DNA from: a virus | Reading direction: 5' to 3' (one strand) | IMG/VR virus record: IMGVR_UViG_3300021406_000010 | Coordinates: 64,001 to 128,000 of that record | DNA: 64,000 nucleotides | Part shown: positions 59,366 to 59,906 of the stretch, one piece after another | Numbering within the stretch: the stretch's first letter is position 1 | How the letters are laid out: the number at the start of each line of letters is the position of its first letter | The notes under the pieces: model-generated | Database searches by the model: none | What the model was told of the DNA's origin: nothing | What the model saw: only the letters and a program-made list of their open reading frames with translations | Position numbers and translations under genes: made by a program

Positions 59366-59906
59366 TTATGTCGGATTGAACTGGTTCGAGTTCAAGGGCA
59401 CGTAGTGGGTATACGCGAACGTGATTCCTTTTGTTACAGCCAGTGCGCCTACGGTGACTGTCTCCCCGTCGTTGATGTCCACTACCGTGACGTTCTGGTA
59501 GACCTTGCCGCGCCAGGACCCGGGAGTGCCCTCCGTGCCGGGCGGCTTGATCACCATCGAGGCCGTCACGTAGTTCGGGTCCTTCTGCAGCGCCAGGAAG
59601 ATGTCGACCATGTTCCAGGTCCCGGCCAGGCCGGCCAGCTGCCACCAGACGGGCTGGTTCCACAGCTCGCGGATGGTCACCATGACGGTGCCGCCGGAGA
59701 TCACCCTGGACGTGGCGATCTCCACCGGGAAGCTGGAGCCGATCGGCTGGATGAATTGATAAGGCTGGCCGGCATCCGAGAAGGCCCTCTGGCCTGAGTC
59801 CTCGCATTAACCAGCCTTCACAGAAGGCAATTGGTGCTTTGTTATATGACAACACAGTGTAGCCTGAACCGACTACCCTGGCCTTCGTGGCGGCGATGGT
59901 GACCAC
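59366..59906 (-). CDS. Tail tube protein interrupted by a 7-nt insert TTAATGC (59810-59804)
   Basis: ARVVGSGYT..PIAFCEGW | EDSGQRAFSDAGQPYQFIQPIGSSFPVEIATSR; lies downstream of the sheath gene. Confidence 0.78.

Follow-up and report, generated by a model that had tools for sequence, protein, structure and literature searches.

A TTA-led seven-nucleotide gap in a phage tail tube gene, carried in a homing-endonuclease cassette and probably crossed by ribosomal bypass

The window analysed here is a stretch of 64,000 nucleotides (nt) from the 166-kb record of a soil phage with 71% GC (IMG/VR record IMGVR_UViG_3300021406_000010, positions 64,001 to 128,000), and its subject is an essential tail tube gene of the Bxz1/E3-like myovirus type (59366-59897, minus strand) whose reading frame is broken by seven extra bases. 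The gene lies between the tail sheath gene (60821-62443, minus strand; phrog_2839) and a tail-assembly chaperone gene. Between sheath and tube stands a free-standing HNH endonuclease gene of 287 amino acids (aa) with C-terminal helix-turn-helix (HTH) domains (59961-60824, plus strand), which is divergent from the tube gene and looks intact. The gap, TTAATGC (59804-59810, minus strand), is made up of an in-frame TTA (59810-59808), one spacer base and the landing codon TGC (59806-59804). It follows the take-off codon TGG, which encodes Trp29 of the tube (59811-59813), and precedes the resume codon GAG for Glu30 (59801-59803), which is invariant among tube homologues. A 6-bp hairpin (59814-59828, minus strand; z −1.4), a possible stimulator, ends directly before the take-off codon.

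The frame upstream of the gap is the start of the tube protein, while the remaining 145 residues follow downstream in another frame and match phrog_2756 as well as gp112, annotated as the tail tube of Rhodococcus phage E3. Removing the 7 nt fuses CEGW with EDSG, which is the arrangement found in uninterrupted relatives, and gives 174 codons, in agreement with the single continuous protein proposed in the initial annotation of this DNA. That annotation also stated, correctly, that a plain +1 slip at TTA meets TAA at once, directly after the Trp codon, and that decoding of TTA leads into an off-frame open reading frame (ORF) of 218 aa (59250-59906). The motif around the junction has one and the same length in all 112 readable cases among 120 homologous proteins, so the alternative raised there, of homologues with two extra residues, falls away. 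An intact tube homologue models as an Hcp/tube fold (Hcp/gp19 beta-sandwich; predicted local distance difference test (pLDDT) 68; E 1e-4 to 1e-3), and the W29/E30 junction falls inside a predicted beta-strand (21-33) of this model; a structure from 13 sequences was discarded (pLDDT 47), and a PDB sequence search gave zero matches.

As the record is metagenome-derived, one might suspect a mistake in sequencing or assembly, or else a plain +1 frameshift with two residues added. However, the identical insert is present in two independent Joint Genome Institute (JGI) assemblies, L204 and L205, in which one of 1131 compared positions is unlike the window, and sequencing error is therefore excluded, together with the possibility, considered in the initial annotation, that the insert is absent from the DNA. 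With the TAA in the +1 frame and no extra residues in any homologue, this explanation is already refuted, and its remaining probability is negligible.

TTA-led gaps form a family that extends over several genes and includes the window gap, a point absent from the initial annotation. We compared 74 distinct tube alleles spanning the 5′ end and found 17 disruptive (frame-breaking or stop-containing) inserts in 13 of them, at six sites (after codons 11, 13, 14, 26, 29 and 45/46) and with lengths of 2, 4, 7, 8, 14, 15 or 16 nt. In all 17, the 2-nt cases (TTT, TT, ATC) among them, the last matching codon is followed at once by an in-frame TTA; the remaining tube insertions are in-frame and TTA-free, and occur in distant AT-rich alleles only. 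Of the 254,909 codons counted in the interiors of conserved coding regions, just 13 are TTA, several of these being gaps themselves, compared with 23 stray TGA, 54 stray TAG and 118 CTA codons. The presence of TTA at the head of every disruptive insert, combined with this rarity, is thus not due to chance. No credible tRNA gene was found in any of 11 genomes.

Eleven whole genomes of related phages contain seven further TTA-led gaps, in the gene that follows the putative tape measure (window 55123, and relative G004) and in baseplate-type, zinc-finger (two gaps), neck-type and tail-fibre-type genes, the last four labels being based on sequence and position, without a database match. The gap in the window has 2 nt (55122-55123, minus strand; CTC, TT, ACC, with CUC to CUU re-pairing) and lies near codon 30 of its gene; in the G004 orthologue a TTA gap of 11 nt occupies the same place. 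Internal gaps are missing from five of the 11 complete or near-complete relatives. The whole-genome break scan was noisy from shadow ORFs, and we used its high-confidence subset, in which 9 of 14 breaks have TTA, and a TTA-centred scan. An exact gap-pattern scan of viral contigs gave no additional copy.

To describe the 3′ side of the gaps, the last three gap bases were compared with the codon before TTA in 20 distinct gap types from five virion genes. They match at positions 1, 2 and 3 in 15, 19 and 8 of the 20, respectively, with 12 landing codons synonymous and 6 identical to the take-off codon. In gaps of at least 6 nt with a non-identical landing, the middle base matches in 10 of 10 cases (p ~6e-6, background 0.3), which makes simple duplication inadequate as an explanation. 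The codon-29 gaps have 7 or 8 nt, that is, two different frames, and their filling is free, with TTA and TG(N) invariant, a pattern that only a frame-independent, codon-reading skip would seem to explain. This landing grammar fits the re-pairing of a peptidyl-tRNA. In the sister allele L207 the 7-nt gap recurs, there with UGG, a perfect match, as the landing codon, and the landing is also perfect in L206, L209 and L212; the UGC of the window, which matches UGG in two of three bases, appears to be a wobble-position variant of the codon seen in L207. The comparison supports the hop from UGG to a near-cognate UGC that was proposed in the initial annotation, and which we infer for this gene.

The same data bear on an explanation at the RNA level, in which a micro-intron, a nuclease and ligase, or polymerase slippage would take out or pass over the extra bases. 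The constant 5′ trinucleotide is in line with such a process, and transcriptional slippage is conceivable for the 2-nt cases, which lie in short T runs. However, the 3′ boundary, the length and the structure are all unconserved, TTA always stands in the reading frame, and the only constraint on the 3′ side resembles that of a codon, strict at the middle base and free at the wobble base, as predicted for a tRNA and not for a nuclease. We regard this explanation as remote.

Selection was compared on the two sides of the gap, as the mean nonsynonymous (pN) and synonymous (pS) values. In insert alleles pN/pS is 0.138/0.82 before codon 29 and 0.092/0.52 after it (ratio ~0.17-0.18 on each side), and in insert-free alleles 0.121/0.52 and 0.109/0.43 (ratio 0.23-0.25). 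In five codon-29 alleles, the cassette-borne codons 5-29, with the gap present in all of these 5′ ends, reach a pS of 0.77 at a pN of 0.04-0.15. Both flanks of the gap thus remain under purifying selection and the gene appears to be still functional, as expected from the initial annotation, which had judged simple pseudogenisation unlikely. A dead or leaky allele, with the element surviving as a plasmid or using the tube protein of a helper, would agree with the imperfect landing codon of the window, with the non-ATG codon at the expected start of many cassette alleles and with the plasmid-like lifestyle of relatives. It is nevertheless very unlikely, given the low pN of the gap-bearing codons at such synonymous divergence, the lack of any ordinary frameshift or stop elsewhere in the 13 insert alleles, and the fact that random damage would not always yield an in-frame TTA and a matching landing codon.

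Regarding the start codon, the position of the homologues' ATG is occupied in the window by ATC (59897), and an in-frame GTG at 59906 lies within the Shine-Dalgarno sequence. Across the codon-29 cassette alleles (window, L207, L208, L209, L211, L026, L030, L034 and L212) this position has ATC in the window and L207, ACG in six, or TTG; the replaced codon stands 8 nt after GGAGG (window 59895-59910, minus strand), and L206 retains ATG. Either these alleles use non-canonical initiation, or they start at an in-frame GTG or ATG two or three codons upstream.

Nor did the initial annotation recognise the gap as part of a homing-endonuclease cassette, which consists of the HNH gene (59961-60824) and the recoded 5′ end of the tube gene. 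The recoded tract (about codons 1-45; 59760-59897, minus strand) has a low GC content at third codon positions (GC3) and near-saturated synonymous sites, and is presumed to be the endonuclease target region carried by the cassette. GC3 over codons 1-45 is 0.57-0.68 in insert alleles versus 0.77-0.93 in the others, the two groups converge by about codon 60, and all tube gap sites fall within this tract. At the 3′ end of the tube gene (window 59366-59480, minus strand) GC3 is also lowered (0.67-0.73 in the last blocks scored). The HNH gene of the window has zero TTA codons and is probably leaderless, with TAGTAT or TAGAAT 7 nt upstream in four alleles; a search for a sigma-70-type promoter found none.

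In the close clade, an endonuclease or its remnant lies beside the tube in 10 of the 12 alleles with an insert and in none of the 14 without one (Fisher p 1e-5, phylogenetically non-independent). The endonucleases that flank the tube are of two unrelated types, HNH-HTH and HNH-AP2. In a prospective test, HNH homologues were retrieved regardless of the tube, and 7 of 7 distinct close homologues of the window HNH with available DNA flank a tube that has the codon-29 gap; a 46%-identical homologue adjoins a different tube clade, without the codon-29 gap, and an HNH scan of viral contigs gave zero matches. A grouping of the codon-29 alleles as a clade is rejected on the 3′ tube DNA (approximately unbiased test, p-AU 3e-58), and the 5′ ends are common to them. 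L030, for instance, is 93% identical to the insert-free L019 in its 3′ part and 68% in its 5′ part, where it is 90% identical to L026. The discordant 3′ parts and shared 5′ ends indicate that the cassette moves horizontally.

The other gap genes also carry traces of such elements: an HNH-AP2 gene upstream in G003, a duplicated old 5′ end in G004 (with an HNH C-terminal remnant) and in G008, and a short remnant in the window and in G010. For the second gap of the window (55121-55290, minus strand) the 5′ end is recoded and the remnant, of an endonuclease C-terminus, lies upstream. Further probable HNH genes are present in the window (28530-29354, plus strand, and ~7144-7275, minus strand) and in G000 (156063), and next to these we found no TTA gap with support from orthologues; the relative G007 has five HNH genes and no supported TTA gap. 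Cargo around the sheath-tube cassette varies and includes a methyltransferase gene (L071, L208), HIT-like and other small genes (L034, L207, L210) and an Lsr2-like gene (L206, L210, L212). In L023 and L028 the sheath-tube interval consists of 0.6-1 kb of repetitive, apparently non-coding DNA, with neither HNH gene nor gap.

The established natural cases of translational bypassing are T4 gene 60 with its homologues and the yeast mitochondrial byps elements; UUA bypass is known from three terminase genes, with partial experimental support. In T4 gene 60 a UAG follows the take-off codon. The byps elements comprise many inserts in many genes, with avoided-codon triggers and a relaxed match between take-off and landing, and are longer, hairpin-containing and mutually related. 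Those of Magnusiomyces capitatus mitochondria are mentioned in PMC10732093 and PMC5009743. The gaps described here resemble byps in the number of inserts and genes, the avoided-codon trigger and the relaxed matching, and differ from them in being tiny, unrelated in sequence, bacterial and endonuclease-linked.

UUA-led coding gaps are known in the large terminase genes of Streptomyces phage phiHau3 and of prophages of Streptomyces C.1 and S. catenulae (PMC10732093). The phiHau3 gene gave a full-length product in Streptomyces, and, with UAA substituted for UUA, mass spectrometry revealed a bypass peptide in E. coli (PMC10732093). In both systems an in-frame UUA opens a short frame-breaking block (7-10 nt in the terminases) in an essential virion-assembly gene, and the flanks are contiguous and length-invariant in homologues. 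Landing is synonymous with take-off in the terminases; both phiHau3 gaps (GGC to GGT, TCT to TCC) obey the landing rule found here, and TCT to TCC also occurs twice among our gaps. Unlike those three terminase genes, which have no endonuclease link (none is adjacent in phiHau3), the present gaps occur in an unrelated myovirus family, with 20 insert types of 2-16 nt, homing-endonuclease cassettes and near-cognate landings such as UGG to UGC or UGU. The phiHau3 type has a 5′ stem-loop and an internal Shine-Dalgarno sequence as stimulators; the window has a hairpin, which an insert-free control also has. Wherever they can be decisively tested, the sequence features of phiHau3-type UUA bypass are present here.

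The window gap, which has 7 nt with UGG/UUA/UGC and lies in a tail tube gene, resembles the T4 mobA/gene 60 cassette in how it works but does not belong to that class. In each, one mobile unit combines an HNH endonuclease, a recoded homology region and a bypassed insert, the endonuclease decays and the gap persists, and the insert guards against self-nicking while leaving the conserved protein unaltered (by analogy in our case). The insert, and not the recoding, is described for T4 as blocking MobA nicking (bioRxiv 10.1101/2022.08.31.505936, citing Bonocora 2011). Whereas the T4 case is one 50-nt element, in the topoisomerase gene only, with matched GGA codons and elaborate stimulators, the gaps here are minimal, triggered by a sense codon and of many independent origins, and involve three or more kinds of endonuclease (HNH-HTH, HNH-AP2 and one that is intragenic and known from remnants only). 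Their occurrence at six tube sites and in other proteins argues against a common nascent-peptide stimulator. Literature searches gave no report of endonuclease-linked UUA gaps, and none joining phiHau3-type bypass with the logic of the T4 cassette.

Building on what the comparisons show, namely the gaps, their landing grammar, selection on both sides, and co-occurrence and mobility with endonucleases, we propose a short ribosomal bypass triggered by UUA that serves as a mark of endonuclease immunity. The first step is shown by the comparisons: the HNH gene inserted between sheath and tube together with a recoded set of the first ~45 tube codons holding the gap. The extra bases would then ruin the endonuclease target at a place where the protein cannot change, making the carrier genome immune while empty alleles are cut and converted. 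During translation the ribosome would stall with UUA in its A site and peptidyl-tRNA-Trp paired to UGG, most likely for want of tRNA-Leu(UAA), which would be scarce or lacking in the growing actinomycete host; the tRNA would slide 7 nt, re-pair on UGC (UGG in sister alleles) and restart at GAG, producing the normal 174-aa tube. If the trigger is merely UUA with a near-cognate codon nearby, gaps should arise easily and repeatedly, at different sites and in all three frames. We infer the hop at UUA from the phiHau3 terminase results (PMC10732093), and the protection of the target from the T4 insert that blocks MobA nicking (bioRxiv 10.1101/2022.08.31.505936). The hop by itself we consider highly probable, and the combined explanation, with its immunity function, probable.

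Several observations weigh against this proposal. No trace of an endonuclease is seen in the insert alleles L052 and L071 or at one neck-gene site, the counts that associate endonucleases with gaps are phylogenetically non-independent, and L086, L087, L089 and L214, all from another tube clade, have a related HNH gene and no gap, which implies that recoding alone can suffice. The landing in the window matches in two of three bases, though the tail tube is required in many copies. The 5′ hairpin comparison revealed no stimulator particular to insert alleles, as the insert-free control L017 folds likewise, and UUA starvation in the host is deduced from codon usage.

Relatives of the virus occur as 150-kb plasmid-like replicons in Streptomyces, and L206 is a viral operational taxonomic unit (vOTU) from peat. 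The window encodes a TraB/FtsK-like protein (23654-27754) with ~30% identity to plasmid proteins of Streptomyces, Actinomadura and Thermobifida, and this gene and its neighbours suggest that the host is a filamentous actinomycete and that the phage lives as a plasmid prophage. In such a setting the same hop could have been selected as a developmental switch, as in the phiHau3 model, with virions made only when tRNA-Leu(UAA) is scarce, a plasmid prophage maintained otherwise, and the endonuclease as mere vehicle. Every gap lies in a virion-type gene, decoding of UUA would destroy the tube, and the phiHau3 terminase gene has no adjacent endonuclease, all of which, like the plasmid-like Streptomyces relatives and the TraB-like gene, would suit a switch. 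However, the five relatives without an internal gap, and gap sites that are scattered and track endonuclease cassettes or remnants instead of a fixed control point, make this unlikely as the selected function. It is compatible with the immunity proposal, in which regulation could be a side effect.

TTA is also found at gene ends. A lysin-like gene has an in-frame TTA where its orthologues end (30348-30355, minus strand; TGG, TTACCTGG, two codons, TAA), and an 8-nt hop between its two TGG codons, from the TTA at 30355 to the TAA two codons on, is probable. An in-frame TTA stands at the orthologues' stop also in a small gene at 27770 (minus strand), in G000 at 47988 (minus strand) and in the G001 sheath gene. 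The site at 27770 was rejected as an internal gap because the orthologues terminate there, and no orthologue was found for a site at 30339 (plus strand). A candidate for a further case is an in-frame TTA in G000 at 134032 (minus strand). Upstream of the tube start in L017 and L003 (G001 ~109250), the sheath gene has TTA for its stop and reads on through the tube gene in another frame over 146 codons; TAA would result from a +1 step, and the read-through could be a one-base error. Near the expected stop of 116 over-long genes the counts are TTA 8, CTA 1, ATA 1, TTG 6 and AGA 7, which is only suggestive of TTA as a substitute at gene ends, and would fit a host that leaves UUA unread during infection.

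A broader reading, which we hold tentatively and at somewhat less than even chances, is that UUA is effectively undecoded in the host during infection and acts, with no dedicated stimulator, as a general "stall and hop" codon wherever a near-cognate copy of the codon before it follows within ~16 nt, with skipping efficient enough even for virion proteins needed in quantity, that several unrelated homing endonucleases hide their immunity inserts in this way, and that UUA also stands at natural gene ends. UUA gaps have been explained as a sensor of lysis versus lysogeny (Smith et al. 2013, as cited in PMC10732093), and the tie to homing endonucleases provides a competing origin for them. Genes with such gaps get mis-annotated as truncated or frameshifted. 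The 20 independent natural gap designs in essential genes, of 2-16 nt, in all frames and with perfect to near-cognate landings, constitute an allelic series for hungry-codon effects. If the broader reading is true, these phages would provide a bacterial counterpart of forbidden-codon bypassing, and a selfish origin would be suggested for the phiHau3 gaps as well.
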